The notes: generated by a model not told the origin, from the letters alone. DNA of 64,000 bases from an uncultured Verrucomicrobiota bacterium (GCA_903831085.1 CAIKWE010000003.1:23468-87467), one strand, 5' to 3'; counted from the first letter of the stretch, positions 1,944-63,945 are shown. Program-made: numbers and translations.

Positions 1944-2156
1944 CTCGTGACGGTTTTATAGCACATCCGTTTCAGGAACGCAGAGATTTTTCCGAGTCTT
2001 GGAAAATCTGCGTCCGGGTTTCCCTGCGAATTGGAATAATGGCGGCCTTTCCTCCGATTTATTTTCCAATGTTTGGAACTATTTTTTAATGAAAAACTAA
2101 CGCATGGAGGGCCTTTTTACCGGAACGTTCTAAATCGCATAGATTTACAAAAAAAA

Positions 2157-2203
2157 ATACAATATGTTGTGGTTTCGTTTGACAGCCATACAGCATTTGG
2201 ATA
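2157..2203 (+). promoter_or_regulatory. Tandem NrdR boxes upstream of nrdD
   Basis: ATACAATATGTTGTGG (2157-2172) fits the NrdR consensus acaCwAtATaTwGtgt; a weaker ATACAGCATTTGGATA starts 31 bp later (2188-2203), the usual NrdR box spacing. Confidence 0.7.
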
Positions 2204-2205
2204 AT
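2179..2205 (+). promoter_or_regulatory. Putative sigma70 promoter of nrdD
   Basis: TTGACA at 2179-2184 and GATAAT at 2200-2205 (15-bp spacer, short); lies between and overlaps the NrdR boxes. Confidence 0.4.
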
Positions 2206-2279
2206 TTTTGTCCCGTCGCTCAGCGAATATTTACTAAAAAAGCCAGTTATAATCAGGTTATCAACAGGGGGAAAATTCT

Positions 2280-5009
2280 ATGGCTGAAACAATTACAGAA
2301 AAAAACACACTTTTCGACGGATTCCGCAAACGCTCCGGGTTGATCGTGCCTTTCAGTCCTAAAAAAATTGAAATGGCCATTCATCTCGCGGTTGAAGAAG
2401 TTTCACGCAAGCAGAATACACCGCGCAACGAAGGCCTCGCGCCGAAAATCACCGCTCAGGTTCTCGAGCAGCTCAACAACCCTCAATCCGAATTTTATGT
2501 GCGCGCTGAAGCCGATAACAAACGCATCCCGCACATCGAAGACGTGCAGGATCTGGTTGAAATTCTGCTGGCTGAAAGCGGAGAGACACTCGTTGTTGCG
2601 GCCTACAAACGTTACCGCAAACAGCGCGAACTGGCGCGTAACAACATCCGTGTCCGTGACGGCAGTCTGAAAAAAGATAAGGTGGATGTCACCGACGCCA
2701 GCCTGCTGCTGGTCGAGTCCCACTCCGCCGAAGTTACCCTGCCCTGGGACCGCAAGCGCATCGTGAAACAAATTCTCGACAAGACCGACCTCGCTGTTGA
2801 CGCCGCCATCGGCATCGCAAAGGCCGTTGAGAACCGCATCATCGCGAGCAACATAAAGGCCATCAGCACCACGCTCATCCGTGAGATGGTCAACAATGAA
2901 CTGGCCGAGCGCGGCCATCAGGCGCAGTTGCGCGACCTCTCGCTCTACGGCGTGCCGCTCGACTACGTCGAAAAACTGATGTTCACCAAGTCCACCGAAA
3001 ACAGCAATATCGTCAACAACAACCCCGAAGCGGTGAACCTCGGCATTGCTGAACTGGTGCTTAAACAATGGGCGCTGGATACCATTTTCACGCCCGATAT
3101 CAAGCGCGCGCACAACACCGGCGCCGTGCATCTGCACGACCTCGGCTATCCGCACCGCGTCTACTGCTCCAGCCACTCGATCGAGTACGTCAAGAAATAC
3201 GGCCTCAAAGGGCTGATCAATCTTAATACCGAATCCAGCCCGGCGAAAACCGCTTCGGTGCTCACCGGACATCTCAACACCTTCCTCGCTTCGATGCAGG
3301 CCAACTATGCCGGCGCGCTCGGCATCGCTTACATCAACATTCTTTACGCGCCATACCTCGAAAAGATGAGCCCGCGCGAACTTAAACAGATCGCGCAGGA
3401 GTTGATCTTCAACGGCTCACAGAACGCGTTCAGCCGCGGCGGGCAGACCCTGTTCCTCGACTTCAACATTCACTCCGGCGTTCCGGGCTACATGAAAACC
3501 GTTCCGGTCATCGGCCCGGGCGGCAAATACATGCTCAAGCTGAAATCCGGTCAGCGCGTCCGCCTCGAAGAGGTTCTGCGTGAAGACCGTGATGCCAGCG
3601 GTTATAAGCTGATGGATCTCTACCTCGAAGAGGATGACGGCTCTCAGCGCCTCGTCATGCGCGAAATCAAAGGCAAAGAAGGCCTTGAGTATGACGCAAC
3701 CGTAGCCGCCGACTTGGAAGCGCGCGGCGAGAAAATCGTCACTTACGGCGACTACACCAAAGAAGCTCAGGATTTCTGCCGCGCTCTGCTCGAAGTCTGG
3801 GGCGACGGCGACAGCAACGGACGCATCTTTGAATTTCCGAAATGCGATTTCCACATCAGCGATGAAACCTTCACCGATCCGGAGCAATATCAGATTTATC
3901 AGGCCGCCTGCCGTCTGGCCGCAAAGAACGGCTCGACCTATTTCATCTTCGACCGCGATGAAGTCACGCTGTCGGCCTGCTGCCGCCTGCGCACCACCAT
4001 CAGCGACAACCGCATGCTGCGCCATCCCGAAAATATGCGCTTCTGCGGCTTCCAGAACGTCACCATCAACATCCCGCAGGCCGCTTACCGCGCGGCGCGC
4101 AGAGGCGGCGACATTCTCCAGAACTTCTACGAAGAAATCGATAGCATGATGGAACTCGTCGCGCAGGCTCACCTGCAGAAGAAGGCCAAGATCGCCCAAA
4201 TGATGAGTGGCAACGGCCACCCGCTCTGGCAGATCGGCAAAGAGTCGAACGACGGCAAACCGTACGTCAACCTCGATACCTGCACCTATATCATTGGACT
4301 CATCGGCGTCAACGACACCGTGAAATTCCTGATCGGTCAGGAACTGCACGACAGCGACGAAGCCCAGCAGTTCGGTCTGCGGATCGTGGCCCACATGTAC
4401 ACCCGCACCAAGAAGCTGAGCAAGAAGTACAACCTCAAGTTCACGCTGGAAGAGTCGCCGGCCGAGAGCGCCGCGCGCCGCCTCGCCAAGACCGACCTCA
4501 TCTATTTCCACGACGAAGCCAAAGACATCGTTAAAGGTGAGACCGAGGATGTCTGCTACTACACCAATTCCATCCATCTCACCGCCGACGCCCCCGTCGG
4601 TCTGGTCGGCCGCATTGTGGAGCAGTCCAAATATCACAGCCTGATTGAATCCGGAGCCATCACCCACGCCTTCGTCGGCGAAGAACAGCCCTCAGCCGCT
4701 TCCATTGAGAAACTCATGACCGAGACCTTCTTCCGCACGCAGTCGGCGCAGGTGTGCATCTCGCCCGAGTTCACTTTCTGCAACAACTGCCACCACCAGG
4801 TGCGCGGACTGATCGAAACCTGCCCCGCCTGCCAATCCGCCGATGTTGTCGGCGAAACCCGCGTGGTCGGTTACTTCAGCAAGATTCAGAACTGGAATAA
4901 ATCCAAACGCTACGGCGAACTCAAAGCCCGTCAAAGAGGCAGCGAGTTTTACAGGGTTGAAACCGCCGACACCGTTGTCGAACAGCCGATGGTCAAAGTC
5001 GAAGGCTGA
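2280..5009 (+). CDS. nrdD: Anaerobic (class III) ribonucleoside-triphosphate reductase with two ATP cones
   Basis: Two N-terminal ATP-cone-like segments; HLHDL, YCSSHS, finger loop SACCRL, EESPAES, YYTNS; C-terminal CxxC..CPxC and glycyl-radical motif RVVGYF. Confidence 0.95.
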   Translation: MAETITEKNTLFDGFRKRSGLIVPFSPKKIEMAIHLAVEEVSRKQNTPRNEGLAPKITAQVLEQLNNPQSEFYVRAEADNKRIPHIEDVQDLVEILLAESGETLVVAAYKRYRKQRELARNNIRVRDGSLKKDKVDVTDASLLLVESHSAEVTLPWDRKRIVKQILDKTDLAVDAAIGIAKAVENRIIASNIKAISTTLIREMVNNELAERGHQAQLRDLSLYGVPLDYVEKLMFTKSTENSNIVNNNPEAVNLGIAELVLKQWALDTIFTPDIKRAHNTGAVHLHDLGYPHRVYCSSHSIEYVKKYGLKGLINLNTESSPAKTASVLTGHLNTFLASMQANYAGALGIAYINILYAPYLEKMSPRELKQIAQELIFNGSQNAFSRGGQTLFLDFNIHSGVPGYMKTVPVIGPGGKYMLKLKSGQRVRLEEVLREDRDASGYKLMDLYLEEDDGSQRLVMREIKGKEGLEYDATVAADLEARGEKIVTYGDYTKEAQDFCRALLEVWGDGDSNGRIFEFPKCDFHISDETFTDPEQYQIYQAACRLAAKNGSTYFIFDRDEVTLSACCRLRTTISDNRMLRHPENMRFCGFQNVTINIPQAAYRAARRGGDILQNFYEEIDSMMELVAQAHLQKKAKIAQMMSGNGHPLWQIGKESNDGKPYVNLDTCTYIIGLIGVNDTVKFLIGQELHDSDEAQQFGLRIVAHMYTRTKKLSKKYNLKFTLEESPAESAARRLAKTDLIYFHDEAKDIVKGETEDVCYYTNSIHLTADAPVGLVGRIVEQSKYHSLIESGAITHAFVGEEQPSAASIEKLMTETFFRTQSAQVCISPEFTFCNNCHHQVRGLIETCPACQSADVVGETRVVGYFSKIQNWNKSKRYGELKARQRGSEFYRVETADTVVEQPMVKVEG

Positions 5010-5035
5010 ACTATTTAAACCAAGGAAACTTAACC

Positions 5036-6174: not shown

Positions 6175-6298
6175 TAACATTCCCAATGTTTGGAAGAAAT
6201 GCGTCCAGCCCTTGGAAACGATTTGCCAGCCGCCCCCCATCCTGCTAGAGATTGATGGTTTCATAGATATTAATACAACCCGACAGGTGGAGGTTCCC

Positions 6299-7723: not shown

Positions 7724-7741
7724 CCTCTCCTAACTTCGCCG

Positions 7742-8764
7742 TCAGACGAAGTCGGCGGGACGAGAAACGCAGAAGGCGATCAGTCCGGGAATGGCGGCGG
7801 CGTCCATGCCGCGCCAGAAGACAACCCAGTCGCCGGCGGCGTGCCGTCCATCGGCGTGCCGGTCATACCACTGGTTGACCGGATTACCTTTCCGCGACCG
7901 CCAGAAAAAGGCCGGATGATTTTTGCAGACTTCATCCCACAGCTCCTGAGCCAGACCTTCGCCGCGCGCTTCCGGGCCGACGGCGAATTTAGAAAGGTAG
8001 AATCCTTCCGGTTTCTGTTCGAGCAGCGCCGCGCCACGGTAATTTTCTTCGAAATAAATCTGCGTGACGTCCGCAAGAACGCCCGGCCTTGGTTTTTTAC
8101 TGAAACTTTCCTCGAGTAGAGCCAGCAACCGCTTGGAATCGGCCTTCTTGCCGGAAAGAATGGTTGAGCCGCGCCGAAAGACAGTGCCCGCCCCTTTGAC
8201 AGTGAAAATTTCCTTGAGCAGGTTAATCGGCGAGGTGACGGAAATATGCGTTCCGGGCCGCGCTTCGAGCAATGCACCAGCTGTGTCAGCCATGGCCTTG
8301 TCTTCCGGCGAAAGCTCTGCGTCCGGCTTCTGGACGTAATAATATTCCGTGCTCAGCCCGCCGCCAGCGCGAATAAAGTGAACCCGTTTTCCAATGCTTG
8401 GAACTTTTTGCAGTAAACTTTCCAATGTCTGGACGTTCTCTTCGACGAAAACCGGTATACCTGCCTTCCGTTTTCCAATGCTTGGAAATTCCGTCAGCTC
8501 AAAAAGAGAGTTGTCTTTGAGCAGACTCCATTTGGCTCCGGCATCGGTGCCGCACAGCACGACAGCGGGCCGGAGTCCCAGCTTGAGGAGGAATTTCAGA
8601 TCGAAGGCCAACGCCTCGGCGCCCTGCTCCAGACTTTCGAGGTCGGGAACGAGCAACGCGAAACAGTCGGCACCGGCGGCCTGGAATTTATTGAGGTAAA
8701 ACTCATATTCCTCGCGCCGTCCAATGCTGTCCAAAAACAGCCGTATGGTTTTGTTAAGAAGCAT
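7742..8764 (-). CDS. DUF619-type N-acetylglutamate synthase-like protein with a shortened amino-acid-kinase domain
   Basis: C-terminal YLSKFAVGPEARGEGLAQELW..FFWRSRxxNPVNxWY..ADG NAT domain; LLKEIFTVKGAGTVF linker typical of NAGS/K. Confidence 0.8.
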   Translation of the reverse strand: MLLNKTIRLFLDSIGRREEYEFYLNKFQAAGADCFALLVPDLESLEQGAEALAFDLKFLLKLGLRPAVVLCGTDAGAKWSLLKDNSLFELTEFPSIGKRKAGIPVFVEENVQTLESLLQKVPSIGKRVHFIRAGGGLSTEYYYVQKPDAELSPEDKAMADTAGALLEARPGTHISVTSPINLLKEIFTVKGAGTVFRRGSTILSGKKADSKRLLALLEESFSKKPRPGVLADVTQIYFEENYRGAALLEQKPEGFYLSKFAVGPEARGEGLAQELWDEVCKNHPAFFWRSRKGNPVNQWYDRHADGRHAAGDWVVFWRGMDAAAIPGLIAFCVSRPADFV

Positions 8765-9619: not shown

Positions 9620-9640
9620 TTTTCCAATGACTGAAAACGT

Positions 9641-10708
<1,068 letters not shown>

Positions 10709-10791: not shown

Positions 10792-11862
10792 ATGCAGTTT
10801 CGCCACATTCTGATTACCGGAGGCGCGGGCTTTGCCGGATCTTCGCTCGCGACGCTGTTCAAAGAGCACTTTGAAGGCGTTAAGGTCACGGCGCTCGACA
10901 GCCTGATGCGACGCGGAAGCGAGCTGAACCTGGCGTACCTGAGGGAATACGGCGTGGATTTTGTACACGGTGACGTGCGTTGCCGCGATGATTTCCAAAC
11001 CTTGGAAAAATTTGATCTGCTGATCGACTGCTCCGCTGAGCCGTCCGTGCATGCGGGCACCTCCGGCTCACCGCGCAAGGTGATTGATATCAACCTGAGC
11101 GGCACGGTCAATTGTCTGGAAGCGGCGCGCGAAAACGGTGCCGCCGTGCTGTTTCTGAGCACCAGCCGGGTCTATCCGATTGAGCCGATCCGGAATCTGA
11201 AATACACAGAAACAAAAACCCGCTTCGAGCTGGATGCCAAACAATCCCTGCCCGGCGTCTCGGCCAAGGGAGTCAGCGAAGATTTTCCGCTGGACGGCGC
11301 ACGATCGTTTTACGGCTCCACCAAACTGGCGAGCGAATATTTTCTGCAGGAGTACGTTTATAACTGCGGCATGCGCGGACTGATCAACCGTTGCGGACTG
11401 CTGACCGGCCCGCGCCAGATGGGCCGGGTGGATCAAGGCGTGATCACGCTTTGGCTGGCGCGGCATATTTATCAGAAGCCGCTGAAATACATCGGTTTCG
11501 GCGGAACCGGCAAACAGGTGCGCGACTTGCTACATATCCGCGACCTTTTCGACCTGATTGTGAAACAGATCGCGCAGCCGGATTGCTGGAACGGCGGCGT
11601 TTTCAACGCCGGCGGCGGACGCGAGGTGTCCGTTTCGCTTCAGGAGCTGACCGCTTTCTGCCAGACCATCACCGGAAAGAAAATTTCCGTAACTCCGCAG
11701 CCGGAAACCGCGGCGGTGGATATCCCGATTTATCTGACGGACAATACACGGGTTGAAAAGCAGTTCGACTGGAAACCGCGCACCGGCGTGGAGGAGACCC
11801 TGGGGGATATCGCCAACTGGATTGAGGAAAACAAAGCCGGACTGGAATCTGTTTTTGGTTAA
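10792..11862 (+). CDS. Second RfbE/Tyv-like NAD-dependent epimerase
   Basis: ILITGGAGFAG, RRGSELNL, AEPSV, YGSTK (YxxxK), GKQVRDLLH. Confidence 0.8.
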   Translation: MQFRHILITGGAGFAGSSLATLFKEHFEGVKVTALDSLMRRGSELNLAYLREYGVDFVHGDVRCRDDFQTLEKFDLLIDCSAEPSVHAGTSGSPRKVIDINLSGTVNCLEAARENGAAVLFLSTSRVYPIEPIRNLKYTETKTRFELDAKQSLPGVSAKGVSEDFPLDGARSFYGSTKLASEYFLQEYVYNCGMRGLINRCGLLTGPRQMGRVDQGVITLWLARHIYQKPLKYIGFGGTGKQVRDLLHIRDLFDLIVKQIAQPDCWNGGVFNAGGGREVSVSLQELTAFCQTITGKKISVTPQPETAAVDIPIYLTDNTRVEKQFDWKPRTGVEETLGDIANWIEENKAGLESVFG

Positions 11863-44727: not shown

Positions 44728-46352
44728 TTGCGTTCGAAGATTTCAAGCGTGGTAGAGGCCTGACCGAAATTTTGGACTTCCCGGCATTTTGTGTAATTCG
44801 TTTCTAAAACAGCCTGCAGAGCCTTCCGATCACTGGAAGAAAGCTCCGCGATTTCCGGCGAACGGATGGTCAGGCCATAGCCGCTGAGAGCCGCGACCGG
44901 GGCGTGAGCTTTCGAAAGAATCTGGATCAGCATCTCTTTATTCAGCAGATTTAATTTTTCCGCCTTTTCCTTCGGCATGTCGGGATAATAGGAGAACGGC
45001 CCCATCTCCATGCCGTGCGGCACGCGGGCTCCGGCTTCAACCGCCAGATAAGTGTCCTGCGTCAGCAAAAGACCATCGTCGCCGAGTTTCCCGCGCAGTT
45101 CCGCGCCGACCTTCTGCAACGCTGCGAGATCCGGTGTTTCTTTAAACTTCCACCAGATCCGGTCGCGCCCGCGGATCAGCCAATCCTGATTCATTGGTGA
45201 AGAAAACGAGGCGGCGGTACAGATCAGTAGCACGGCGAAAACCGCCCGCAACTGCTGCCGTTCCGGACAATGCGGCACCAGCGTCACCGCCAGCGCGGCG
45301 GACAGTAACGGATAGACAATCACCTGATAATCGTCATACGGAAACGGCGCCATAAAGTGCACCAGCGTAATCAGCGCGCCGGAAAACCAGAGAAGCGAAA
45401 CGAAACTCCGCGCAAATGGCGAGCGTTCCGCATTCGCCTCGCGCAGCAGTTCGATGAGGTTGGGACGGCTGTCGAGTGTCATTTCCTCGAACCCACGCTC
45501 CCGAACCGGCCAATGCAACCGTTGCAGAGCAAACGTCACCAAAAGTCCGGCGAAGAAGACAAAGTAGGCCTGAACGGAACGGGAAATGAAACCGGCTTTC
45601 AGCGCGATCATCTGCATCAGACTGCCGGGCGAACGCCCCGCATGATAGCCGAACAGCGCAAATTCCGTATTTCCCGGAGCCAGAAAAAAGAACGTGCCCA
45701 GTCCGAGCAGCAGAATAAAACCGCCGCCGAGCCCGAATGCGATCCACGACAATGGAAAAACCTTTTTGCGGTTCCAGAGCAGCCAGAGCCCTGCCACCGG
45801 CAGCGCGATTCCGGCCGAGAGGCGCGTACAGGCCGCCAGTGCCAGCAGAAATCCGCCCCAGAAAGCGGCCATAGCGCCGCGACGGCTGTTGCTGGTGTAG
45901 CTCAGCGCCACAAAACCGGCCGTCAGAAAAAAGGCGCAGAGCGCGTAGGTTTTCACGATGACGGTGAAATAGCTCTGATACACGTTAACGCCAGCCAGAA
46001 TAAGCGCACAGAGCGCGGCGGCTTTCCGGTGTTTGGAAGAAACCGAACGAACAGCCAGCCAGGCCGCACAGCCGACGGCGGCCAGCCCGAATAGCGCGGT
46101 GATCAGCCGTCCGCCCGCAACACCGAACTTTTCAATGATTGGAAAAAGCACGCCGTAGATGTAAGGAAGCGCGGCCCCTTGCGTGAACATGAAGTCGCGA
46201 TAGAGCACCTGTCCCTGGGTGATTTGTTTCGCGGCGTAAAGATACCAGCCTTCATCCTGATTTAAACCGCCCAGAAAAAGGTTGGCCGTGCTCAGCAGAA
46301 TACACAGCCCGACCGCAATCACAGTGATGGAAACCCATGTGGCTCGTTTCAT
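44724..46352 (-). CDS. GT-C-like membrane glycosyltransferase
   Basis: First-loop LNQDEGWY (DE motif), G...YRDF, multiple TM helices. Confidence 0.7.
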   Translation of the reverse strand: MKRATWVSITVIAVGLCILLSTANLFLGGLNQDEGWYLYAAKQITQGQVLYRDFMFTQGAALPYIYGVLFPIIEKFGVAGGRLITALFGLAAVGCAAWLAVRSVSSKHRKAAALCALILAGVNVYQSYFTVIVKTYALCAFFLTAGFVALSYTSNSRRGAMAAFWGGFLLALAACTRLSAGIALPVAGLWLLWNRKKVFPLSWIAFGLGGGFILLLGLGTFFFLAPGNTEFALFGYHAGRSPGSLMQMIALKAGFISRSVQAYFVFFAGLLVTFALQRLHWPVRERGFEEMTLDSRPNLIELLREANAERSPFARSFVSLLWFSGALITLVHFMAPFPYDDYQVIVYPLLSAALAVTLVPHCPERQQLRAVFAVLLICTAASFSSPMNQDWLIRGRDRIWWKFKETPDLAALQKVGAELRGKLGDDGLLLTQDTYLAVEAGARVPHGMEMGPFSYYPDMPKEKAEKLNLLNKEMLIQILSKAHAPVAALSGYGLTIRSPEIAELSSSDRKALQAVLETNYTKCREVQNFGQASTTLEIFERK

Positions 46353-48311: not shown

Positions 48312-50084
48312 TCAGTCTGCCCGGCATTCTTCGATCTCAGCCCAGCGGGCAAAGGCGGCATCCATCTCTGCTGAAACAGCTCCGGCGCATTCCGTGACCG
48401 TTTTAATTTCATCTGCCGGGCGGCGATAAAAATCCGGCTCATTCAGCTTCCGATTCAGCTCGGCCAGTTCCGCTTCGAGCTGCTCAATTTTTTTTGGAAG
48501 ATTTTTTAGATCTTCGCGTTCACGGTTGGTCAGCTTGCGCGTCTTCCTCGTTTTCTCTGCCGAAGACGGCTGATCTCTGCCGTCTGACTTCTGATTTCTG
48601 GCTCCTGCGGCCTGTTGCAACCAGTCGTCGTAACCGCCGGCATATTCGCCGATCTGCCCGTTGCCTTCGAACACGAGCGTCTCAGTTACCACGTTATTGA
48701 TAAACGCGCGGTCGTGGCTCACCAGTAGCACGGTGCCCTGATATTCCACCAGTAACTCTTCGAGCAAATCGAGCGTTTCGACGTCGAGATCGTTGGTTGG
48801 CTCGTCGAGCACCAGTACGTTGGAGGACTGGGCAAAAATTTTGGCCAGCATCAGCCGGTTGCGCTCGCCGCCCGAAAGCGATCCGACCGGTTGCCGGGCA
48901 TCAGCGGGCGAAAAAAGAAAATTCTGCAGATACCCGATCGCATGCTGCCGCCCGGTGCCGGTCTGGACATAGTCGTTATCCATGCAGAGGTTCCACTTCA
49001 CGCTCTTTTCCTCATTGAGCGTAATGCGGTGCTGATCGAAATAGGCAATTTCCAGCTTTGTACCGTGCCGAACCTCACCCTGCCGCGGCGCGAGCTGTCC
49101 CAGTAGCGCGTTGAGCAGCGTCGACTTCCCGCATCCGTTGGGGCCGATAATCCCGATGCGGTCGCCACGCAGGATTTCGACAGAAAAGCCGTTAATGACA
49201 TCCGCGCCGCCGTAGCCGCACGAAATATTTTTGGCCGTGATGACCTTACGCCCAGACATCTCCGCTTCGTTCAGTTGCATTTTGACGGTGCCGGTCCGTT
49301 CGCGCCGCTGGGAGCGCTCGACCCGCAGTTTTTCGAGTTCGCGGACGCGGCCTTCGTTACGCGTCCGGCGCGCTTTGATCCCTTTACGGATCCAGACTTC
49401 TTCCTGTGCGAGCTTGCGGTCGAATTCAGCCCTTTGCCCTTCCTCGGCTTCGAGCAGCGCCTGCCGGCGGCTCAAATAGGTTTCATAGTCGCATGCCCAG
49501 CTGGTCAGATTCCCGCGATCAAGCTCCACAATGCGCGTGGCCAGCTTTTTGAGAAATACGCGGTCATGAGTAACAAACAACACCGTACCGCGCCAGCGCA
49601 GCAGAAAGTTTTCCAGCCATTGGATCGATTCGATATCGAGGTGGTTGGTCGGCTCGTCGAGGATCAGCAGATCCGGTTCATTCACCAGCGCTTTGGCAAG
49701 CAGCGCGCGGCGGCGCATCCCGCCGGACAGCGAGGAAAATTCCTGGTCTGGATCGAGACCCAGCAGAGAAATCGCCTTCTCCACCGGATGATCTAGGGCG
49801 TGTTCGTGGTTCCAATCTTTGGACACCAGATCGAAAACCGTCCCTTGAATATCCTGCGGAACCGTCTGTTGAAGCCGTGCAATCCGCACCTCGCGCGAGC
49901 GGACAATCTCACCTTTGTCCGGCTCCAGCTCGCCGCTGACAATTTTCAGCAGTGTGGACTTGCCTTGGCCGTTACGTCCGACCAGACAGATGCGCTCGCC
50001 CGGCTCGATTTGCAACGTCACGCCGTCCAGCAATGCCGGTCCGCCGAACGCGATATGAAGATTCTGTAAACTAAGTAATGCCAT
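48312..50084 (-). CDS. uup: ABC-F family ATPase Uup
   Basis: Start reassigned to ATG 50084; two ABC cassettes (GRNGQGKS, GPNGCGKS, LSGG, DEPTN), EEVWIRKGIKARRTRNEGRVR linker. Confidence 0.9.
   Translation of the reverse strand: MALLSLQNLHIAFGGPALLDGVTLQIEPGERICLVGRNGQGKSTLLKIVSGELEPDKGEIVRSREVRIARLQQTVPQDIQGTVFDLVSKDWNHEHALDHPVEKAISLLGLDPDQEFSSLSGGMRRRALLAKALVNEPDLLILDEPTNHLDIESIQWLENFLLRWRGTVLFVTHDRVFLKKLATRIVELDRGNLTSWACDYETYLSRRQALLEAEEGQRAEFDRKLAQEEVWIRKGIKARRTRNEGRVRELEKLRVERSQRRERTGTVKMQLNEAEMSGRKVITAKNISCGYGGADVINGFSVEILRGDRIGIIGPNGCGKSTLLNALLGQLAPRQGEVRHGTKLEIAYFDQHRITLNEEKSVKWNLCMDNDYVQTGTGRQHAIGYLQNFLFSPADARQPVGSLSGGERNRLMLAKIFAQSSNVLVLDEPTNDLDVETLDLLEELLVEYQGTVLLVSHDRAFINNVVTETLVFEGNGQIGEYAGGYDDWLQQAAGARNQKSDGRDQPSSAEKTRKTRKLTNREREDLKNLPKKIEQLEAELAELNRKLNEPDFYRRPADEIKTVTECAGAVSAEMDAAFARWAEIEECRAD
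48571..48605. repeat. 7-nt periodic motif inside the uup linker
   Basis: TGATCTCTGCCGTCTGACTTCTGATTTCTGG, encoding RNQKSDGRDQ on the - strand. Confidence 0.45.
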
Positions 50085-50130: not shown

Positions 50131-51792
50131 TTACACAAAATGGCGGCCGAGCAGTTCTTCGACCTGATCGCGCCAGATGGCGTCATATTTACAGCCTTTT
50201 TTCAGCCGCACAAAAATACGGCGTGAAGCGATCTGATCGAACAGCGCCGCCGAAGCGTAACGATCCAGCAGATGCGGCGGCTGCTTTTTGATGGTTTCAA
50301 TCATCGCTTCTAGCAGTCCGATCGGTTCTTCGCGCTCCGAACAAAGCACAAACTGCCAAAGTATGTCCGGCTCGCGAACGATTGCCTGCTCGATCATTTG
50401 GCAGATTTCTTTTCGGCGGGCGTTGAGGTCGTCGCCACGAATAATCACTGCGCAGCGGTTCTGTCCGGCCTGTTCCTTAAACAGCCCTTCAAGCCGATAG
50501 CCGGTAAAGCGCGACGTCACCGGATCGGCGGGCAACTCGATACTGTCGTGTAGTAAAACTTCAATGCGCGTCATTTCCTCTTCGGACATCGTCGAAGTGG
50601 AAAACACGCCGTACGGCGGAAGCGGCATCGCTTTCATTCCATATAGTTCGGACTGATCGCGCAGATCGGTACCCGGTAGCAAAAGCGTCTGCATGCACTG
50701 AATACTGATATTCGGCCCGAAACCGCGCGCCCATTCAATACTGCGGAGTACATCGTCTATCGTCTGCTCCGGCAAACCGTACATCAGGTCGAGCGTCACC
50801 TTCACGCCCGCGCCAGTCAGCAAACGGATTCCTTTTTCAACCTGCGCGATATTCACCGGACGGCGGATCGCGCGCAGTACTTTCGGATCGGTGCTCTGCA
50901 CACCGACTTCCACCTCCACAAAATTAGCTTTGGCCATCAGTTCCGCCTGTTCCGGCGTCAGCGTATCGGCGCGCAGCTCGGCAAAAAATCCAAGCTTCCG
51001 GTCGGTGTTAATTTCCGCCAACCGTTTCAGCAAACCGGTGAAGTCGGCGCGGGCATTAAAGGTCGGGTCAACAAAGCGGATTTCCCGCGCACCAGCGGCG
51101 CGTAGCTCCTGAACCCGTTGCGCCGCCGCTTCCGCCGGAAGTGCTCGAACGCCCTTCTGCAAATGGTGATAACGGCAGTATGTGCAGGTCAGCGGACAGC
51201 CACGCGAGGTTTCCACATAAACTGACGGGCGTACTTTGATGCACTCCCGCAACATCGCCACCGGAACTTGAACTGACGCCAGATCAATCTGTGGCGGCGG
51301 TTTACTGCCGCGATTCCAACCTTTGGAACCTGAAACCAGCACGTTGTCATACGCCGGCAGTTTGCCGATGCGGATTCCTTTCAGAATCTCCGGAAAAACC
51401 GCCTCACCTTCGCCGGTTACCAGCGCGTTAAAAAACGGCTCTTCCAGCAGAAATGGATGATCCTCCGAAATCTCCGGGCCGCCCGCCATCAGGAAAAGTT
51501 CCGGACAAGATTTGCGGAGCATTCCAGCAATTCGCAGACCGCGTTCGACATTCCAGAGACAAAGCGTAAACGCTACGGCTTCGACGCCACTCACCAGAAT
51601 CTTCTGGATCAGATTCGCGTTATCCAGTTCGTCCCACTTCGCCGGAGCCGGAACAACTTCCCAGAACTCGCCTTCGGAGTGCTGAGACAGCGCATGTGAA
51701 AGCCAGAGACCGGCGAACGGAAAATTTTCGCGTTGCGTCGAAGTGTCGTTGTCCAGCAACGGAAGCTGGATGAATAAAATCTTCTTTTTCAT
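50131..51792 (-). CDS. B12-binding domain radical SAM protein
   Basis: Start reassigned to ATG 51792; GGPEI, VTGEGE, ETSRGCPLTCTYC, EVGVQS, DLMYGLP. Confidence 0.85.
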   Translation of the reverse strand: MKKKILFIQLPLLDNDTSTQRENFPFAGLWLSHALSQHSEGEFWEVVPAPAKWDELDNANLIQKILVSGVEAVAFTLCLWNVERGLRIAGMLRKSCPELFLMAGGPEISEDHPFLLEEPFFNALVTGEGEAVFPEILKGIRIGKLPAYDNVLVSGSKGWNRGSKPPPQIDLASVQVPVAMLRECIKVRPSVYVETSRGCPLTCTYCRYHHLQKGVRALPAEAAAQRVQELRAAGAREIRFVDPTFNARADFTGLLKRLAEINTDRKLGFFAELRADTLTPEQAELMAKANFVEVEVGVQSTDPKVLRAIRRPVNIAQVEKGIRLLTGAGVKVTLDLMYGLPEQTIDDVLRSIEWARGFGPNISIQCMQTLLLPGTDLRDQSELYGMKAMPLPPYGVFSTSTMSEEEMTRIEVLLHDSIELPADPVTSRFTGYRLEGLFKEQAGQNRCAVIIRGDDLNARRKEICQMIEQAIVREPDILWQFVLCSEREEPIGLLEAMIETIKKQPPHLLDRYASAALFDQIASRRIFVRLKKGCKYDAIWRDQVEELLGRHFV

Positions 51793-51898: not shown

Positions 51899-52687
51899 TT
51901 ATTCATTGGAAGTCAATGGGGGACGGACATACGGCGGATAGCCGGGCAGAATTTCCGAAAGCGCCTGCTTGATGCGGGCGATGGCGAACGGACCGGAAAA
52001 CTGCGCATAAACTTTATCCACCGCGGCCTGATTCTCCGCGCTCTGGTCCGTTTCGATGCGGACGTACGGTAGCGGATCGGCATTTGATGCTGCGCTGACA
52101 AATCCTTTCGCTCCGGCGGTGTACGCGGCGCAGATTTTCCGGTCGCCGCCGACGAAATAGCGCGGCGTCGCCGGAATAAGCGACAGATCGGCGGAAGAAT
52201 CTTTCATTCCGTAATGCGGCACCTGCGCCAGAATTTCCGGTGTCAGTGGATTGCCGGTATGTTTCGGAAAGTTATAGAGAATCAGCGGGAGCGCGGTGGA
52301 TTCCGCCAGTGCGGTGAACCATTCCACCAGACCGGCGGCGGGCGCACCGGCAAAATAAAACGGCGGAAGTGCGGCGATAAAGTCAGCACCCTCGCCTTCG
52401 GCGGCGCGGGCGGTTTCCAGACATTGGAAAAGCACCGGACTGCCGGTATGGGCGATAATGATTCCGTCCCAGTTTTCGCGGGCGACTTGCAGCAATTGCA
52501 ACTGCTCGGCGGGCGTCAGAGAAAAAAACTCACCGGTCGTTCCGTTCACCAGCAGATTGCGCACGCCGCATTCGGCCAGCCAGTCGAGATGCGCCAGAAA
52601 CGCCCCAAAATCCACCGCACCGCTCTCCGTAAACGGCGCCGGCGCCGGGACAACTAACCCCTTGAGCTCAAAATCGGTTTTGTTCAT
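51899..52687 (-). CDS. Dihydrodipicolinate synthase (DapA/NAL) family aldolase
   Basis: Start reassigned to ATG 52687; NGTTGEF, LYNFP, GMKDSS. Confidence 0.85.
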   Translation of the reverse strand: MNKTDFELKGLVVPAPAPFTESGAVDFGAFLAHLDWLAECGVRNLLVNGTTGEFFSLTPAEQLQLLQVARENWDGIIIAHTGSPVLFQCLETARAAEGEGADFIAALPPFYFAGAPAAGLVEWFTALAESTALPLILYNFPKHTGNPLTPEILAQVPHYGMKDSSADLSLIPATPRYFVGGDRKICAAYTAGAKGFVSAASNADPLPYVRIETDQSAENQAAVDKVYAQFSGPFAIARIKQALSEILPGYPPYVRPPLTSNE

Positions 52688-52715: not shown

Positions 52716-53390
52716 ATGACGAAACAAGAATCTATTCCGGCCTGCCCGCTCTGCGCCAACGGCTCGACGGAGCCGTTTCACCGTGACCGGAAGCGCGAGT
52801 TTTTCCGCTGTCCGCAGTGCGATCTGGTTTTCGTGCCGCCGGAATTCCACCTTTCACCGGAAGCGGAAAAGGCGCGCTATGATTTTCACAGCCAAAGTCT
52901 GGACGATTCCGGCTACAGCGATTTTTTGAACCGGCTGTTCCAGCCTGTGCAAAAGAAACTTCTGCCCGGCGCGCGCGGACTCGACTTCGGCTGCGGCCGG
53001 GAACCGACGCTCTCCGTGCTGTTCGAGGGCGCCGGATTTCCTTGCGCCAACTATGACCTGCACTTCGCCAACGATCCGGCGGTTTTAGAAAAGCAGTACG
53101 ACTTTCTCACCTGCTCGGAAACGATGGAGCATTTCTATCGTCCGCGCGAAGAATTCGCGCGCTTCCTGCAAATGGTGAAGCCCGGCGGCTGGATCGGCAT
53201 TATGACCCAGTTGCGCGATGAAGCTCCGCCGTTCTCAACGTGGTTCTACAAAGATGACGCAACGCACGTCTGCTTTTTCTCGCGGAAAACTTTCCAATGG
53301 TTGTCAGAAACATACAGCCTGAAACTGGAGTTTCACCCGAACGGAGTCACCCTCTTCCAGACATTGGAAGCTTCGCAGGATTTCGTTTAG
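52716..53390 (+). CDS. Class I SAM methyltransferase with N-terminal zinc ribbon
   Basis: Start reassigned to ATG 52716; CPLC..CPQC, LDFGCG, ETMEHF, YKDDATHVCFF. Confidence 0.8.
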   Translation: MTKQESIPACPLCANGSTEPFHRDRKREFFRCPQCDLVFVPPEFHLSPEAEKARYDFHSQSLDDSGYSDFLNRLFQPVQKKLLPGARGLDFGCGREPTLSVLFEGAGFPCANYDLHFANDPAVLEKQYDFLTCSETMEHFYRPREEFARFLQMVKPGGWIGIMTQLRDEAPPFSTWFYKDDATHVCFFSRKTFQWLSETYSLKLEFHPNGVTLFQTLEASQDFV

Positions 53391-53477: not shown

Positions 53478-53514
53478 TAAAAATAAAAAGGCCGGACACA
53501 CCGTCCGACCTTTT
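53478..53514 (-). terminator. Rho-independent terminator after infC
   Basis: On the - strand: AAAAGGTCGGAC-ggtgt-GTCCGGCCTTTT followed by ATTTTT. Confidence 0.7.
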
Positions 53515-53533
53515 GTCTTCCAATCCCTGGAAA

Positions 53534-55828: not shown

Positions 55829-55949
55829 AAATAAGGCGCAAACTGTACATTTACAGCTATAGCGTGTCAATCAGACGCCTTGTTAGATGGCTGTTTTCCG
55901 ATGCTTGGAAGCCCGAAGGTCAGTCGGTGAGCCTGTAGATGCGAGTCGT

Positions 55950-57576: not shown

Positions 57577-58440
57577 TTATTTCCGATTCCGGGCCAACTC
57601 GTCCGCCCGATAGGAGGAGCGCACCAGCGGGCCCGCCGCCACGCCCTCAAATCCGATTCCCCGAGCAAGTGCGGCCAGTTTATCAAAATGTTCGGGGGAA
57701 AGATAGCGTTCAACCGGATGATGTTCGCGTGTCGGCGCCAGATACTGCCCCAGCGTCAGCAGGCGGACGCCCGCCGCATACAAATCTTCCAGACATTGGA
57801 AAATCTCCTCATCGGTTTCGCCAAGCCCCAGCATCAGTCCCGACTTCACCTGCACTCCACATCGCTCCGCCGCCTTGCGCAACGTCGCCAGCGACTTTTC
57901 ATAGCTCGCCTGCGGACGAACCGTTGCCTGAAGCCGCTCGACCGTTTCAAGGTTGTGATTAAATACATCCGGTTTCGCATCCAGCACGATATCGAGATGC
58001 TCTACAAAATCGGGCGTCAAAACTTCGACCGATGCTTCCGGCATCGCCGCCTTTACCGCGCAAATCGTGTTGGCAAAAGCCTGCGCGCCGCCGTCAGGCA
58101 GATCGTCGCGCGTTACGCTGGTGATCACCACATGCCGCAAATTCAGCCTTTTGGCGGCCTCGGCCACGCGGGCCGACTCGTCCGGATCGACCGGCGACGG
58201 CTTGCCGGTGTTCACATTGCAGAAACGGCAGTTGCGTGTGCAGATGTTACCAAGAATCATCACCGTCGCTGTTCCGCTGTTCCAGCACTCATGGCGGTTG
58301 GGACACTTTGCGCTGGCGCAGACCGTATTCAGCTGAAGACTCTCCAGCAGCTTTCTCACATCCGGATAGCTCTGATCCGTCGCGATCGGCCGCCGCATCC
58401 ACCGCGGCAGCCGCTGCGCTTTGGGTTTGAGCTCATTCAT
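57577..58440 (-). CDS. lipA: Lipoyl synthase
   Basis: TVCASAKCPNRHEC, CTRNCRFC, VFNHNLETV, LGQYL, LVRSSYRA. Confidence 0.97.
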   Translation of the reverse strand: MNELKPKAQRLPRWMRRPIATDQSYPDVRKLLESLQLNTVCASAKCPNRHECWNSGTATVMILGNICTRNCRFCNVNTGKPSPVDPDESARVAEAAKRLNLRHVVITSVTRDDLPDGGAQAFANTICAVKAAMPEASVEVLTPDFVEHLDIVLDAKPDVFNHNLETVERLQATVRPQASYEKSLATLRKAAERCGVQVKSGLMLGLGETDEEIFQCLEDLYAAGVRLLTLGQYLAPTREHHPVERYLSPEHFDKLAALARGIGFEGVAAGPLVRSSYRADELARNRK

Positions 58441-58448
58441 GGCGAATC

Positions 58449-61121
58449 TCAGGCGGACAGCGTTTCGATCAGCTTCTGGAGTTTTTCGCGTTTTTCAAGC
58501 AGCTCGCCTTTACGCTTCTCTTCACCGGCAACGACGTCGGCAGGCGCCTTGCTCATGAACCCGGCGTTGGAAAGTTTTTTGACGATTCCGGTGATGCCGT
58601 TCTCGACGATCTCAATCTGCTTTTTCAGCTTCTTGATCTCGGCATCGGTGTCCACCAGTCCTTCGATGGACATATACACTGTGCCAAGTTGGCTGATGCC
58701 GCTGGGCATCGCGCCTTCCGGCGTGAAGTCGCGGTCGATCCCGATGGATTCCGCGCCGAGCAGTGACGAAACCGACGCGATGTCCTCGCGGAGCAGTTTA
58801 CCGGTGCGTTCCTGCGCCGGACGGATATAAAACTTCGCCTGTTGTTTCGGCGTGAGGTTGTAGTCGGTGCGCAAAGTACGGCCGACGCGGATCAAGTCGT
58901 GCTTGGCATCCACATAATCAACCGTTTCACGTTTCACGCCCCACGCACTCAGGTCTTCATAGGAAAGCGCCTTCGGCCACGGCGCGGTTTGAATGGACTC
59001 GCAGGAACCGTTATATCCCATGCCGTGCCACAGCTCTTCGGTGATGAACGGGATAAACGGATGCAGCAGACGGATGGCGCTGGAGAAAACATAGTGCATC
59101 ACCTGCTCGACTTCCTGTTTGCGCTGCGCGTCTTCGCCGCGGAACACGCTCTTCGAATATTCGACGTACCAGTCGCAGTAGTGATGCCACATGAAGTCGT
59201 ACATCGCCAGCGAGGCATCGTTGAAGCGGCAGCGCGCCAGATTATCCTCGGTGTTGCGGACGGCTTCGCTCAGCTTGGCGAGAATATGCTGATCGTCCGG
59301 ACTGAGCGTCATCTTGCTGAAATCAATCTTATCGGGATCGATCGGCGCGCCGGTGGCGTTCATCTGCATAAAGCGCGCGGCGTTCCAGATCTTGGTGCAG
59401 AAGTTGCGACCCAACTCAAATTTTTCGTCACTGATATAAACGTCCTGCCCCGTCGCGGTCAGCATCATCAGACTGAAGCGCAGCGCGTCGGCGCTGTATT
59501 TATCGATGATGTTAAGCGGATCGATCGAGTTGCCGAGACTCTTGCTCATCTTGCGGCCCTGATCGTCGCGCACGGTGCCGTGGATATAAACCGTGTCGAA
59601 CGGAATCTTATCCATGAACTCCATGCCCGCCATAATCATACGCGCCACCCAGAAGAAAATAATTTCCGAAGCGGTCACCAGTGTTTTGGTCGGGTAAAAA
59701 TGTTTCAGATCAGCGGTCTGCTCCGGCCAGCCGAATACGCTGAACGGCCAGAGCCACGACGAAAACCAGGTATCAAGAACGTCTTCGTCCTGACGAATGT
59801 CCTTCACGCCGCAAACCGGACAGCTTCCGGGAACTTCCCGCGCCGCCCATTCATGGCCGCAGGCATCGCAGTAGAACACCGGAATGCGGTGGCCCCACCA
59901 GATCTGACGCGAAATGCACCAGTCGCGGATGTTTTCCATCCAGTCGAGATACACCTTGTTCCAGCGCTCCGGCACAAACTTGATGCGGCCGTCGCGTACC
60001 GCTTCGATGGCAGGCTTGGCCAGCGGCTTCATGTTGACGAACCACTGCGGTGACAAGCGAGGTTCGACAACCGTCGCACAGCGGTAGCAGTGACCAACCG
60101 AGTGCATGTGCTTGTCGATCTTCTCCATCAGCCCGCCGTGCTTCAGGTCTTCGACCAGCTGTTTGCGGCAGTCGAACCGGTCCAGTCCGGCGTACGGCCC
60201 GGCGGCTTCATTCATCACGCCGTGATCGTCCATCACATTGATCGGCGTCAGCTTGTGGCGCAGACCGATTTCAAAGTCGTTCGGATCATGCGCCGGCGTC
60301 ACCTTAACACAACCGGTTCCAAAGCTCGGATCGACAAACTCGTCGGCGACGACCGGAATTTCTCTTCCAAGGATTGGAAGAATCAGCGTCTTGCCGACCA
60401 GGTCGCTGTAGCGTTTATCGCGCGGGCTGACGGCGACAGCCACGTCGCCGAGCATCGTTTCCGGACGCGTAGTGGCGACCGTGATCTTACGCTTTTCGTC
60501 TTTGACGGTGTAGCGGATGTAATACAGCGCGCCCTCGGTCTCGACGTGTTCACTCTCTTCATCGGAAAGCGCGGTGGTGCAGCGCGAGCACCAGTTGATG
60601 ATGCGGTTGCCGCGGTAAATCAGTCCCTTGTCATACAGACGGCAGAAAACTTCCAGAACGGCTTTGCTCAAACCCTCGTCCATCGTGAAGCGCTCGCGCT
60701 CCCAGTCGCAGGACGAGCCGAGCTTCTTGAGCTGGCTGACAATCGTGCTGCCGTACTCCTCTTTCCACGTCCAGACTTCCTTCAAAAATTCATCGCGCGA
60801 AAGGTCGTGGCGGCTCTTGCATTCTTTAGCCAGCTTGCGCTCGACCACGTTCTGCGTCGCGATACCGGCGTGGTCGGTGCCCGGCACCCACAGCGCATTC
60901 TTGCCCTGCATGCGCTGCCAGCGGATCAGCACGTCCTGAATCGTGTTATTCAGCGCGTGGCCCATGTGCAAAATACCGGTCACGTTCGGCGGCGGAATGA
61001 CAATCGTCCACGGCTCTTTGCTCGCGTCCGGCTTCGCGCTGAAGGCTTTCTCCTCCAGCCACTTCGCATACCACTTCGCCTCAACGCCGGCGGGTTCATA
61101 ATTCTTCGGTAACTCAGCCAT
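58449..61121 (-). CDS. valS: Valyl-tRNA synthetase
   Basis: PPPNVTGILHMGH (HIGH-type), DWCISRQIWWGH, KMSKS, C-terminal coiled coil. Confidence 0.98.
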   Translation of the reverse strand: MAELPKNYEPAGVEAKWYAKWLEEKAFSAKPDASKEPWTIVIPPPNVTGILHMGHALNNTIQDVLIRWQRMQGKNALWVPGTDHAGIATQNVVERKLAKECKSRHDLSRDEFLKEVWTWKEEYGSTIVSQLKKLGSSCDWERERFTMDEGLSKAVLEVFCRLYDKGLIYRGNRIINWCSRCTTALSDEESEHVETEGALYYIRYTVKDEKRKITVATTRPETMLGDVAVAVSPRDKRYSDLVGKTLILPILGREIPVVADEFVDPSFGTGCVKVTPAHDPNDFEIGLRHKLTPINVMDDHGVMNEAAGPYAGLDRFDCRKQLVEDLKHGGLMEKIDKHMHSVGHCYRCATVVEPRLSPQWFVNMKPLAKPAIEAVRDGRIKFVPERWNKVYLDWMENIRDWCISRQIWWGHRIPVFYCDACGHEWAAREVPGSCPVCGVKDIRQDEDVLDTWFSSWLWPFSVFGWPEQTADLKHFYPTKTLVTASEIIFFWVARMIMAGMEFMDKIPFDTVYIHGTVRDDQGRKMSKSLGNSIDPLNIIDKYSADALRFSLMMLTATGQDVYISDEKFELGRNFCTKIWNAARFMQMNATGAPIDPDKIDFSKMTLSPDDQHILAKLSEAVRNTEDNLARCRFNDASLAMYDFMWHHYCDWYVEYSKSVFRGEDAQRKQEVEQVMHYVFSSAIRLLHPFIPFITEELWHGMGYNGSCESIQTAPWPKALSYEDLSAWGVKRETVDYVDAKHDLIRVGRTLRTDYNLTPKQQAKFYIRPAQERTGKLLREDIASVSSLLGAESIGIDRDFTPEGAMPSGISQLGTVYMSIEGLVDTDAEIKKLKKQIEIVENGITGIVKKLSNAGFMSKAPADVVAGEEKRKGELLEKREKLQKLIETLSA

Positions 61122-61133
61122 AAGAAATCTCCA

Positions 61134-61857: not shown

Positions 61858-61891
61858 GATTCAGCCTTGCCGTTTTCCAACCATTGGAAAA

Positions 61892-63481: not shown

Positions 63482-63615
63482 GGTTTTCCCCGATGGAATA
63501 GAAGGCAGGAAAGATATACGACCCCCCCGCAGATTTAAAGCCTTCACCGGCCCTTTTTTCGGGGGAATTTAACCGCTGGAGCATATTCAAAAATTTTGTG
63601 GCCGTCTGCTTCTTC

Positions 63616-63671
63616 TGTAGGTGCGGCCGGTGGCCGCGCTCTTTCTTCCGCGGTCACCGACCGCGGCTACA
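63616..63671. repeat. GTAG-type REP-like inverted repeat
   Basis: TGTAGGTGCGGCCGGTGGCCGCG versus reverse complement of right arm TGTAGCCGCGGTCGGTGACCGCG. Confidence 0.75.
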
Positions 63672-63734
63672 GTTCAGATAAAAATGCTCTAACTGGACGC
63701 TAATCGACGCAAATGGGTTCCAGATATTGGAAAT

Positions 63735-63814
63735 GTGGAAACGGCTTCCTGCGGCGGGGCGAAGCTCTATGCGAAGACCGCAGCCGCTGGCCAGAGGCAG
63801 GATGCCTCTTCCAC
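63735..63814. repeat. GTGG..CCAC REP-like inverted repeat
   Basis: GTGGAAACGGCTTCCTGC versus reverse complement of right arm GTGGAAGAGGCATCCTGC. Confidence 0.6.
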
Positions 63815-63945
63815 CTTAAAATCTTTACCGCCCGCGACACCTGCCCGCAGTGCTACAGCGTTGCAGGCGGGAGACACCAAGGCCGCAAAGATAATCCCCT
63901 CGGCCGAAGGACGGGGTGGGTATTTCCAATGCTTGGAAACAGAGA

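Follow-up and report, generated by a model that had tools for sequence, protein, structure and literature searches.

Why would a single gapped palindrome be written again and again into the chromosome of one bacterium? Genome-wide iterated motifs such as HIP1, the DNA uptake sequences (DUS) and uptake signal sequences (USS), Chi and the repetitive extragenic palindromic (REP) elements are rare, and each of them has revealed a piece of DNA biology. The question is raised here by a 64-kb stretch from a lake-water metagenome (the window, by which we mean this whole stretch), in which the dyad TTCCA-N5-TGGAA occurs 19 times in perfect form (2064 to 63924), against 0.11 expected and at most 1 found in dinucleotide-preserving shuffles. 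If up to one mismatch is allowed the count rises to 33 against 2.24 expected; because of this expectation, about two of the 14 one-mismatch copies may be due to chance. An unbiased scan of the window for all 5-Nx-5 dyads (x = 0-10) returns TTCCA-N5-TGGAA as the sole outlier, and the same arms at every other spacing between N0 and N12 yield no copy in the window. An earlier note on this DNA had listed 19 perfect copies, with coordinates identical to ours, and about 15 near-perfect ones, for which we count 14 copies with one mismatch.

The window is a segment of a bacterial chromosome (55% G+C) with nrdD, valS, thrS, infC, leuA and a large glycan-synthesis cluster. Homologues of its valyl-tRNA synthetase (ValRS) and of an N-acetylglutamate-synthase-like (NAT) protein place it in the Kiritimatiellales, with an identity of 69% to the Kiritimatiella glycovorans homologue and of 68% to that of Pontiellaceae B12227; the phylum, one of anaerobic polysaccharide degraders, has received little study. 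In this freshwater bacterium and in some of its relatives the 15-base palindrome TTCCAAT-C/G-ATTGGAA is present more than 100 times above chance. A full-text literature search found no published description of the motif.

Pressure at the level of the DNA

Pooling both strands of 31 unascertained copies and of 112 copies from metagenome loci gives the consensus tt-TTCCA-A-t-S-a-T-TGGAA-aa, that is, the 7-1-7 palindrome TTCCAAT-S-ATTGGAA in a 19-bp T...A frame. Within the spacer of the pooled copies, A at position 1 and T at position 5 reach 82-87%, T at position 2 and A at position 4 reach 43%, and the centre is C or G in 92-96%, with A or T almost absent there. The additional T/A flanks mentioned in the earlier note are found as well (51-63% T at -1/-2, 51-68% A at +1/+2). 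The spacer at first looked asymmetric between the strands (TTCCAATG), which is accounted for by the T that extends the half-site together with the C/G centre. Beyond the 19-bp frame the pooled flanks show no conservation to 60 nt on either side, except for the echo of a neighbouring copy, and the motif is therefore not the end of a longer element such as a miniature inverted-repeat transposable element (MITE). A known MITE end, which according to the earlier note could have explained the enrichment away, was rejected on this ground together with the unrelated linkers between neighbouring copies.

Six of the 19 perfect copies in the window are intergenic. The other 13 are located inside called coding sequences, where a synonymous-codon shuffle yields 1.69 (at most 7 in 1000 shuffles) and a codon-order shuffle 0.13, so that the enrichment stands against nulls that respect codons and amino acids (13 against 0.13-1.7), on which the earlier note had made its claim depend. 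Frame 0 holds seven of the 13 and all seven read F-Q/H-x-L-E. The corresponding peptide, F[QH]x[LMV]E, is found eight times in the approximately 19,300 residues encoded by the window (about 0.5 would be expected, as estimated from typical amino-acid frequencies), and the exact motif is used in seven of these eight.

Comparison with relatives shows the same pressure in single genes. For the valS peptide LPILGR carriers of the motif write CTT CCA ATC CTT GGA AGA, whereas non-carriers use other codons or have D or N instead of G. In a lipoyl-synthase-like gene FQCLE, FQTLE or FQALE is seen in carriers against FECLN, LECLQ or MECLQ in non-carriers and an outgroup, and the site was therefore made through two amino-acid replacements. 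Three copies in the NAT gene (8389, 8420 and 8473) sit in the conserved peptides VPSIGKR, VQTLE and FPSIGKR. Since the NAT protein is full length and conserved across the Kiritimatiellales, these copies arose by codon choice; their origin from an insertion or a mobile element was rejected for the same reason (the two copies in an open reading frame (ORF) of 834 codons were also inspected). The pressure thus acts at the level of the DNA, overriding the choice of codons and even of amino acids.

Could codon or amino-acid bias, a repeated protein motif or a MITE end have produced the pattern as an artefact of chance or composition? That seven genic copies share the FQxLE type of peptide would point in this direction. 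However, all three nulls (dinucleotide, synonymous-codon and codon-order) fall short by 8- to 170-fold, FQxLE is itself over-represented and was created by substitutions in relatives, almost a third of the perfect copies (6/19) is intergenic and the flanking sequence is unconserved. We give such an artefact virtually no credence.

The inner six specified bases of the motif are identical to those of the PflMI/Van91I site (CCANNNNNTGG), from which the earlier note had drawn a possible link with methylation. As worded there the link does not hold: outside the motif, bare CCA-N5-TGG is found 16 times in the window against 14.1 expected, neither enriched nor avoided, whereas in the motif the TT/AA flanks and the C/G centre are informative and the spacer is far from unconstrained (position 1 and centre, see the frequencies above); an enzyme that reads CCA-N5-TGG would not demand such flanks or such a centre. 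A Pfam scan of 50 window genes revealed none for a DNA methyltransferase or a restriction enzyme.

Neighbouring copies lie whole helical turns apart

Metagenome contigs were scanned for TTTCCAANNNTTGGAAA, which yielded 120 loci, 51 of them with at least two perfect copies. Each locus was ascertained via one copy, and the spacing to further copies is not biased by that. Most of the nearest-neighbour distances between 16 and 160 bp fall within 30-33 bp (61 of 106), with a peak at 31-32 bp and minor peaks at 22, 41-42, 52-53, 63, 73-74, 94-95 and 105-106 bp. A period of 10.5 bp with a mean phase of 0.0 bp fits the distances best (Rayleigh p 8e-28 with all of them, 2.5e-6 once the 30-33 peak is taken out). 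The 66 linkers between copies 30-33 bp apart (46 loci) have no sequence relationship to each other, with a mean best identity of 0.45 and one four-locus family as the exception; it is therefore the spacing which is constrained and not the linker sequence.

Similar distances are observed in the window: 31 and 53 bp for 8389/8420/8473, 22 bp for 6181/6203, 74 bp for 1990/2064 and 106 bp for 46024/46130, with a poorer fit to whole-turn spacing for the pair 38406/38446 (40 bp). In locus L323, fetched via a gene and not via the motif, none of the 10 copies is genic, and of the five clusters four consist of two copies at a distance of 31-32 bp. Whole-turn distances combined with free linkers are what duplex DNA shows when proteins that interact with each other bind along one of its faces. 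Within each copy, too, the invariant TTCCA blocks are centred 10 bp apart, i.e. one helical turn.

Two side observations concern the arrays. A composite array with 31-30-22 bp spacing and similar linkers is present in L202 (2992-3089), L207 (1007-1156), L223 (5140-5237) and L282 (6421-6518); the flanks differ and L207 has an extra 52-bp unit, so arrays can be copied as blocks and grow by tandem duplication. In L307 (9249-9550, on a contig of 32% G+C) a 41-bp tandem repeat contains TTCCAAAATTTGGAA. A centre base of A or T and conserved linkers make it likely that this repeat is an unrelated satellite caught by the search pattern.

We consider it about an even bet (a probability of roughly 0.5) that the motif serves as the high-affinity operator for a homodimeric protein which binds DNA sequence-specifically, is abundant enough for some 10^3 sites to be relevant and acts cooperatively on one face of the DNA. 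The earlier note had already suggested the site of a dimeric protein; the half-site blocks one turn apart and the neighbours at integral turns agree with this, whereas the protein itself is what we infer. Each monomer would read one TTCCA(AT) half-site and, with the two half-sites one helical turn apart, both would be on the same face, while the C/G centre and the T/A flanks may tune the shape of the DNA. Dimers on adjacent sites would touch one another or wrap the DNA, which would put the sites integral turns apart and above all three turns (31-32 bp). Single sites would be tolerated in genes where the protein sequence allows, and pairs or arrays would accumulate in unconstrained intergenic DNA, chiefly just past stop codons. 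The density and placement of the sites suggest that the role may be architectural (nucleoid organisation or insulation of gene ends) rather than the regulation of specific genes.

Operators with this geometry are known. NrdR boxes, NtrC enhancer sites, Lrp/AsnC sites and ComK boxes are dyads of 15-17 bp with centres about 31-32 bp or other whole turns apart, bound cooperatively on one face. Operator arrays of the NrdR, NtrC or Lrp type share with the motif both a palindrome with half-sites one turn apart and the integral-turn spacing. Such sites are confined to the promoters of a regulon, tens at most, and their consensus sequences appear to differ; the motif is not restricted to promoters but is found within genes, past stop codons and in spacers of all three kinds (divergent, convergent, tandem). 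We know of no NrdR-, NtrC-, Lrp- or ComK-type site written genome-wide into coding sequence. The Noc-binding site (ATTTCCCGGGAAAT), parS, matS and SlmA sites are palindromes scattered over the chromosome, often genic, and recognised by an architectural protein that is a dimer. A genome has 10-70 of them; they do not form phased arrays and are conserved with their protein across whole orders. The Noc half-site has TTTCC in common with the motif.

Phasing also bears on the comparison with cyanobacterial HIP1 (GCGATCGC). The likeness to HIP1 and to uptake sequences put forward in the earlier note stands in one respect, the DNA-level pressure that overrides codons and amino acids. HIP1, the function of which is still debated, is likewise a short palindrome about 100-fold over-represented in genes and spacers against codon preference, and such massive over-representation in coding and non-coding DNA is also what we find. 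Unlike the motif, however, HIP1 is an ungapped, G+C-rich 8-mer that is phylum-wide and a methyltransferase target. The element described here has 15-19 bp in a 7-1-7 arrangement, varies within a genus and forms phased arrays, no link to methylation was found for it, and it is neither the HIP1 sequence nor a close ungapped variant.

A mutational drive comparable to that proposed for HIP1 would consist of a DNA methyltransferase with a very-short-patch-type mismatch endonuclease, or of another biased repair or gene-conversion process, which would turn near-cognate sequences into copies, and the motif would then have no structural role. This would fit the similar pressure on genes, intergenic DNA and (pro)phage DNA; patchy and fast gain and loss are expected from mobile methyltransferase and repair genes, and a motif-rich viral contig (L194) encodes a DNA methyltransferase. 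Yet it leaves both the 31-32 bp distance and the 10.5-bp phasing unexplained, the bare CCA-N5-TGG core is not enriched and the 15-19 informative positions (flanks and C/G centre included) exceed the usual specificities of methyltransferases, an enzyme which the Pfam scan of the window genes did not find either. We therefore consider this drive unlikely.

Placement at gene ends and patchy distribution

Copies are far denser between genes (1.94 per kb) than within genes (0.18 per kb), a difference of about 11 times (p 1.5e-14, six loci with gene calls). Nonetheless about half of the perfect copies in annotated loci are genic (26 of 51). Stop codons are abutted by copies five times more often than by random positions, often 1-12 nt 3' of the stop; instances of copies abutting a stop in the window are 32019, where the copy ends the gene itself, and 53518, 61875, 9622 and 6181. 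Copies also follow valS in L001, L317, L321 and L085, and the DUF2179 gene in L321 and L322. Divergent spacers (1990/2064), convergent and tandem spacers and positions a few nt before start codons hold copies as well, and no fixed geometry relative to promoters or genes was seen. In our own tally the copies show only a slight preference for one orientation with respect to genes (12 to 5). Between infC and its intrinsic terminator in the window, and between nifU and its terminator in L085, a copy stands after the stop codon and apart from the terminator. The contigs that a relative's metatranscriptome and the source metagenome offer for 51-64 kb are too fragmentary to display where transcripts end with respect to the copies.

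This placement brings in a further explanation, namely a REP-like hairpin that works as RNA or single-stranded DNA, either as a stem-loop in the 3' untranslated region for stability or processing of the mRNA or as an element spread by a REP-associated transposase. Copies 1-12 nt past stops, sometimes ahead of a terminator, would suit such a hairpin, as would the regularly spaced clusters, reminiscent of bacterial interspersed mosaic elements (BIME), and the composite array seen in four flanking contexts and grown by tandem duplication. Two-mismatch variants in the pooled motif-bearing loci also show an excess of symmetric complementary changes (17 against 7.6). In the same variants one perfect half-site with two errors in the other arm is in excess (133 against 90), and one error per arm is not (88 against 86). 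Against a hairpin, half of the copies are genic, the stem is weak (-3.3 to -6.0 kcal/mol for 15-21 nt, not a stable hairpin of 20-40 nt), a period of 10.5 bp belongs to duplex DNA, a centre base limited to C/G has no obvious role in a loop, the orientation bias is weak and no Rfam family matches.

The Neisseria elements dRS3 (ATTCCC-N8-GGGAAT) and NIME (Neisseria intergenic mosaic elements) and the enterobacterial REP/BIME resemble the motif as gapped or imperfect palindromes in hundreds of copies, with regular intergenic clusters near the 3' ends of genes. They are, in contrast, intergenic only, have conserved intervening segments and are linked to phage integration or to RAYT transposases, whereas half of the copies described here are genic (which also separates them from REPINs) and their linkers are unrelated. 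No Y1 transposase domain was found in the scanned window genes or in the gene tables of the carrier loci L085, L317, L321, L322 and L323; one is present in L319, which is free of the motif. Taken together, we regard a REP-like hairpin as very improbable.

Other known elements were rejected as well. An intrinsic terminator does not agree with the weak A/T-rich stem nor with T before and A after it, the reverse of a terminator, and at infC the terminator is a separate element. For a CRISPR array the unit (15-19 bp) and linkers (7-17 bp) are too short compared to repeats of 23-50 and spacers of 26-72, and no Rfam CRISPR match reached the gathering score. A promoter was dismissed since neither a -10-like nor another fixed-distance signal is seen to +60 nt and sigma-70-like sites are not enriched. 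Rfam gave no match in the window at the gathering score (for a leuA leader none at E <= 1), the window contains no tRNAs, and a BLAST search of an array against annotated plasmids and phages returned no match. The motif departs from each of the families compared in at least one defining feature. It belongs with the short motifs iterated genome-wide, among which its phasing is unusual and its carrier lineage new.

The earlier note had left room for an enrichment confined to the window. In fact relatives carry the motif at 0.24-0.40 copies per kb, and extrapolation of this density (approximately 1 site per 3 kb) gives about 10^3 sites per genome. Perfect copies amount to 0.30 per kb in the window, 4 in 15.5 kb of L001 (ValRS 92% to the window), 6 in 15.2 kb of L321 (92%), 4 in 13.7 kb of L322 (90%), 9 in 22.7 kb of L317 (82%) and 8 in 22.7 kb of L085, from Pontiellaceae B12227 (68%). 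A second Kiritimatiellia lineage of higher G+C is represented among the carriers by L201 (6 in 9.0 kb) and L323 (5 in 21.1 kb). No perfect copy is found in L320 (ValRS 93%; no one-mismatch copy either, in about 12.9 kb), L081 (86%), L083 (80%), L318 (70%), L084 from K. glycovorans (69%) and L319 (66%), and L316 (87%) is nearly free with a single one.

Four of the five sampled congeners (the window, L001, L321 and L322) thus carry the motif and L320 does not, although 4.0 perfect copies would be expected there at carrier density (P(0) = 0.018). In the ValRS tree L320 is nested amid the four carriers: bootstrap support is 99.7% for the clade of all five species and 0% for one of carriers only. 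The orthologous spacers and codons of L320 show no relics of the motif, with ordinary sequence instead. Apart from its highest ValRS identity to the window, L320 (1-12853) has an extra 23S_rRNA_IVP gene in a two-component operon. The orthologous DUF2179-thrS spacer has three copies in L321 and one in L322; in the region shared by the window and L001 three of five window copies are conserved, with arms intact and spacers different; of the other two, one has a mismatch in L001 and one is missing there. Arms that persist at orthologous intergenic places while the spacer changes speak for the operator. The distribution is patchy, with rapid changes between presence and absence. For an operator this would mean that the binding activity varies between lineages, by absence of the gene or a changed specificity, and that a genome without the activity would keep no sites, as these decay or revert.

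No orthologues common to the metagenome loci and the window were found; one high-GC metagenome locus was assigned to Kiritimatiellia by a BamD homologue search. Some viral contigs from IMG/VR also contain several copies of the motif: L194 (1-9101) encodes an integrase and the DNA methyltransferase mentioned above (562 residues) and has 5 perfect copies in 9.1 kb, and L180 (1-11140, 43% G+C) has tail-fibre and virion genes and 4 perfect copies in 11 kb, all genic.

A 'self' signal for DNA uptake or recombination has to be weighed here, in which a receptor prefers DNA with the motif and biased uptake plus recombination spread it, as for the DUS of Neisseria and the USS of Pasteurellaceae. These have a similar density (0.3-1 per kb), a frame preference, effects on amino acids, a placement downstream of genes and, for USS, AT-rich flanks. 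All of this is matched by the motif: a density near 0.3 per kb, genes and non-coding DNA included (0.24-0.40 among the carriers, below about one per kb), preferred reading frames with replaced amino acids, enrichment just downstream of genes and AT-rich flanks. Moreover, the copies are sparse in the 11-32 kb part of the glycan-synthesis cluster (one wholly inside), as would fit recently acquired DNA. On the other hand, DUS and USS are asymmetric, conserved in a family as dialects and tied to competence, and do not show 31-32 bp intervals. The motif is palindromic, and its helically phased pairs and arrays are neither known for uptake sequences nor predicted by uptake drive. It is not common to a whole family or genus, since it differs among congeneric species and is absent from the congener L320 and from L081, L083, L318, L084 and L319. 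No competence is known from Kiritimatiellia and no competence gene was seen among the window genes, and viral contigs carry multiple copies as well. We hold an uptake signal to be rather improbable.

Several observations also weigh against the operator of a dimeric protein. Copies between a stop codon and its terminator are transcribed, which leaves room for a role in RNA, and the excess of symmetric double changes would be predicted by a hairpin likewise. The minor spacing peaks may in part reflect units of 22, 31.5 and 42 bp added together, the site in the middle being degenerate. Clustering of the ORFs from 58 motif-rich loci in search of the cognate protein gave only extracytoplasmic-function (ECF) sigma factors, a multi-copy family, and a PIN-domain ORF. 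To our knowledge no nucleoid or regulatory protein has perfect sites more than 100-fold enriched in coding sequence, a behaviour typical of uptake sequences and HIP1. Finally, the distribution is derived from 13-23 kb per genome and a single-gene (ValRS) tree.

More tentatively still, and as a possibility we would not call probable, a protein of variable activity may have written about 1000 copies of its own 15-bp operator, rewriting codons and amino acids on the way, and its phased assembly after genes may be a new, sequence-directed way in which bacteria of the PVC superphylum organise the nucleoid or insulate gene ends (roadblock termination), switched on or off between congeners. The motif joins two traits not otherwise seen together, protein-altering pressure as for HIP1 and USS and a strict helical phasing with unconserved linkers, the latter being a direct physical signature of cooperative protein binding. 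Carrier and non-carrier species in one genus form a natural experiment, in which genome comparison should single out the responsible gene, and the cultured carrier Pontiellaceae B12227 makes biochemistry possible. As a practical marker the motif could aid the binning and host assignment of Kiritimatiellia contigs and phages.

The copies in the window and their surroundings

All window copies are recorded with strand '.'. The divergent cvpA/nrdD region has a one-mismatch copy, TTCCGAGTCTTGGAA (1990..2004), 74 bp from a perfect intergenic copy (2064..2078) that lies 201 nt upstream of nrdD. The nrd operon (2280-6174) encodes NrdD with an ATP-cone (2280-5009), a glutaredoxin-like small ORF (5036-5431) and a radical-SAM activase (5428-6174); such an operon, for the anaerobic type of ribonucleotide reductase, identifies the organism as an anaerobe. 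Six nt past the activase stop a one-mismatch copy is found (6181..6195; the true start of the next gene is 6300), followed at 22 bp by another intergenic one (6203..6217). The NAT gene combines a perfect copy in VPSIGKR (8389..8403), a one-mismatch copy in VQTLE (8420..8434, 31 bp away) and a perfect copy in FPSIGKR (8473..8487, 53 bp further).

A one-mismatch copy (9622..9636) fills the 21-nt gap between the convergent recO and epimerase genes, 2 nt past the recO stop. A one-mismatch copy with an atypical spacer that may be a chance match (10563..10577) lies in an epimerase gene, as does a perfect one in frame 0 (10993..11007, FQTLE). From 9641 to 37526 extends a glycan or lipopolysaccharide-type cluster with epimerases, GT2 and GT1 transferases, PMT_2 proteins, a sugar C-methyltransferase and a DegT aminotransferase. 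Its 11-32 kb part has one perfect copy wholly inside and one at the edge, a scarcity that could mean recent acquisition of this DNA. Perfect copies are located in frame 0 of a GT2 glycosyltransferase gene (21220..21234, FQWLE), in the last five codons of a GHMP-kinase gene (32019..32033, FQALE, with the stop codon directly next) and in frame 0 of a nucleotidyl-transferase gene (36102..36116, FHTLE).

The ORF of 834 codons, for a membrane protein, has a one-mismatch copy (37837..37851) and two perfect ones 40 bp apart, reading SNHWK (38406..38420) and FPMIGK (38446..38460). A perfect copy in frame 0 of a DUF2961 gene follows (41570..41584, FQRLE). At 43517-43906 the window encodes a protein of 129 aa with the RNA-recognition motif RRM_1, a domain uncommon in bacteria. 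Two one-mismatch copies with a TTCCG arm (44824..44838 and 46024..46038) are in an ORF of 542 codons, and one with a TTTCA arm (46130..46144) lies 106 bp from the latter. The ABC-F ATPase gene has two one-mismatch copies (49611..49625 and 49810..49824), a B12/radical-SAM gene a perfect one in frame 2 (51314..51328) and a gene of the DHDPS family a perfect one in frame 0 (52415..52429, FQCLE).

An intergenic one-mismatch copy with an atypical spacer (52938..52952) may again be a chance match. Downstream of infC perfect copies are found at 53355..53369, between genes, and at 53518..53532, 1 nt past the stop and before the intrinsic terminator (53486-53514). A one-mismatch copy separates the DUF2179 gene and thrS (55896..55910). 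Perfect copies reside in the lipoyl-synthase-like radical-SAM gene (57787..57801, FQCLE) and in valS (60365..60379, LPILGR, a peptide that relatives free of the motif encode, identically or nearly so, with different codons).

A further perfect copy (61875..61889) follows leuA, 2 nt past its stop codon, and precedes by 17 nt an ORF with a PIN domain (weak PIN_3 match). This ORF is present with the motif directly upstream in the window (61390-61857), L001 (12700-13230) and L317 (12810-13292). As its position relative to valS and leuA differs per genome, it looks like a mobile toxin-type gene.

Upstream of leuA two perfect copies, at a distance of 170 nt (63718..63732) and beside a conserved hairpin (63924..63938), are kept in L001 with different spacers, the former at the orthologous place. 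The hairpin, CCCCGTCC-TTCG-GCCGAGGGG followed by ATTATCTTTG (63890-63925), adjoins the latter copy and has no Rfam match; it is kept in L001 (7714-7750), and in L085 (8250-8306) it is inverted relative to leuA. An element GCTGTAGCACTGCGGGCAG, part of a larger inverted repeat, is found on the - strand at about 63800-63850 and also in the unrelated metagenome locus L226 (9211-9229), near motif copies in both.

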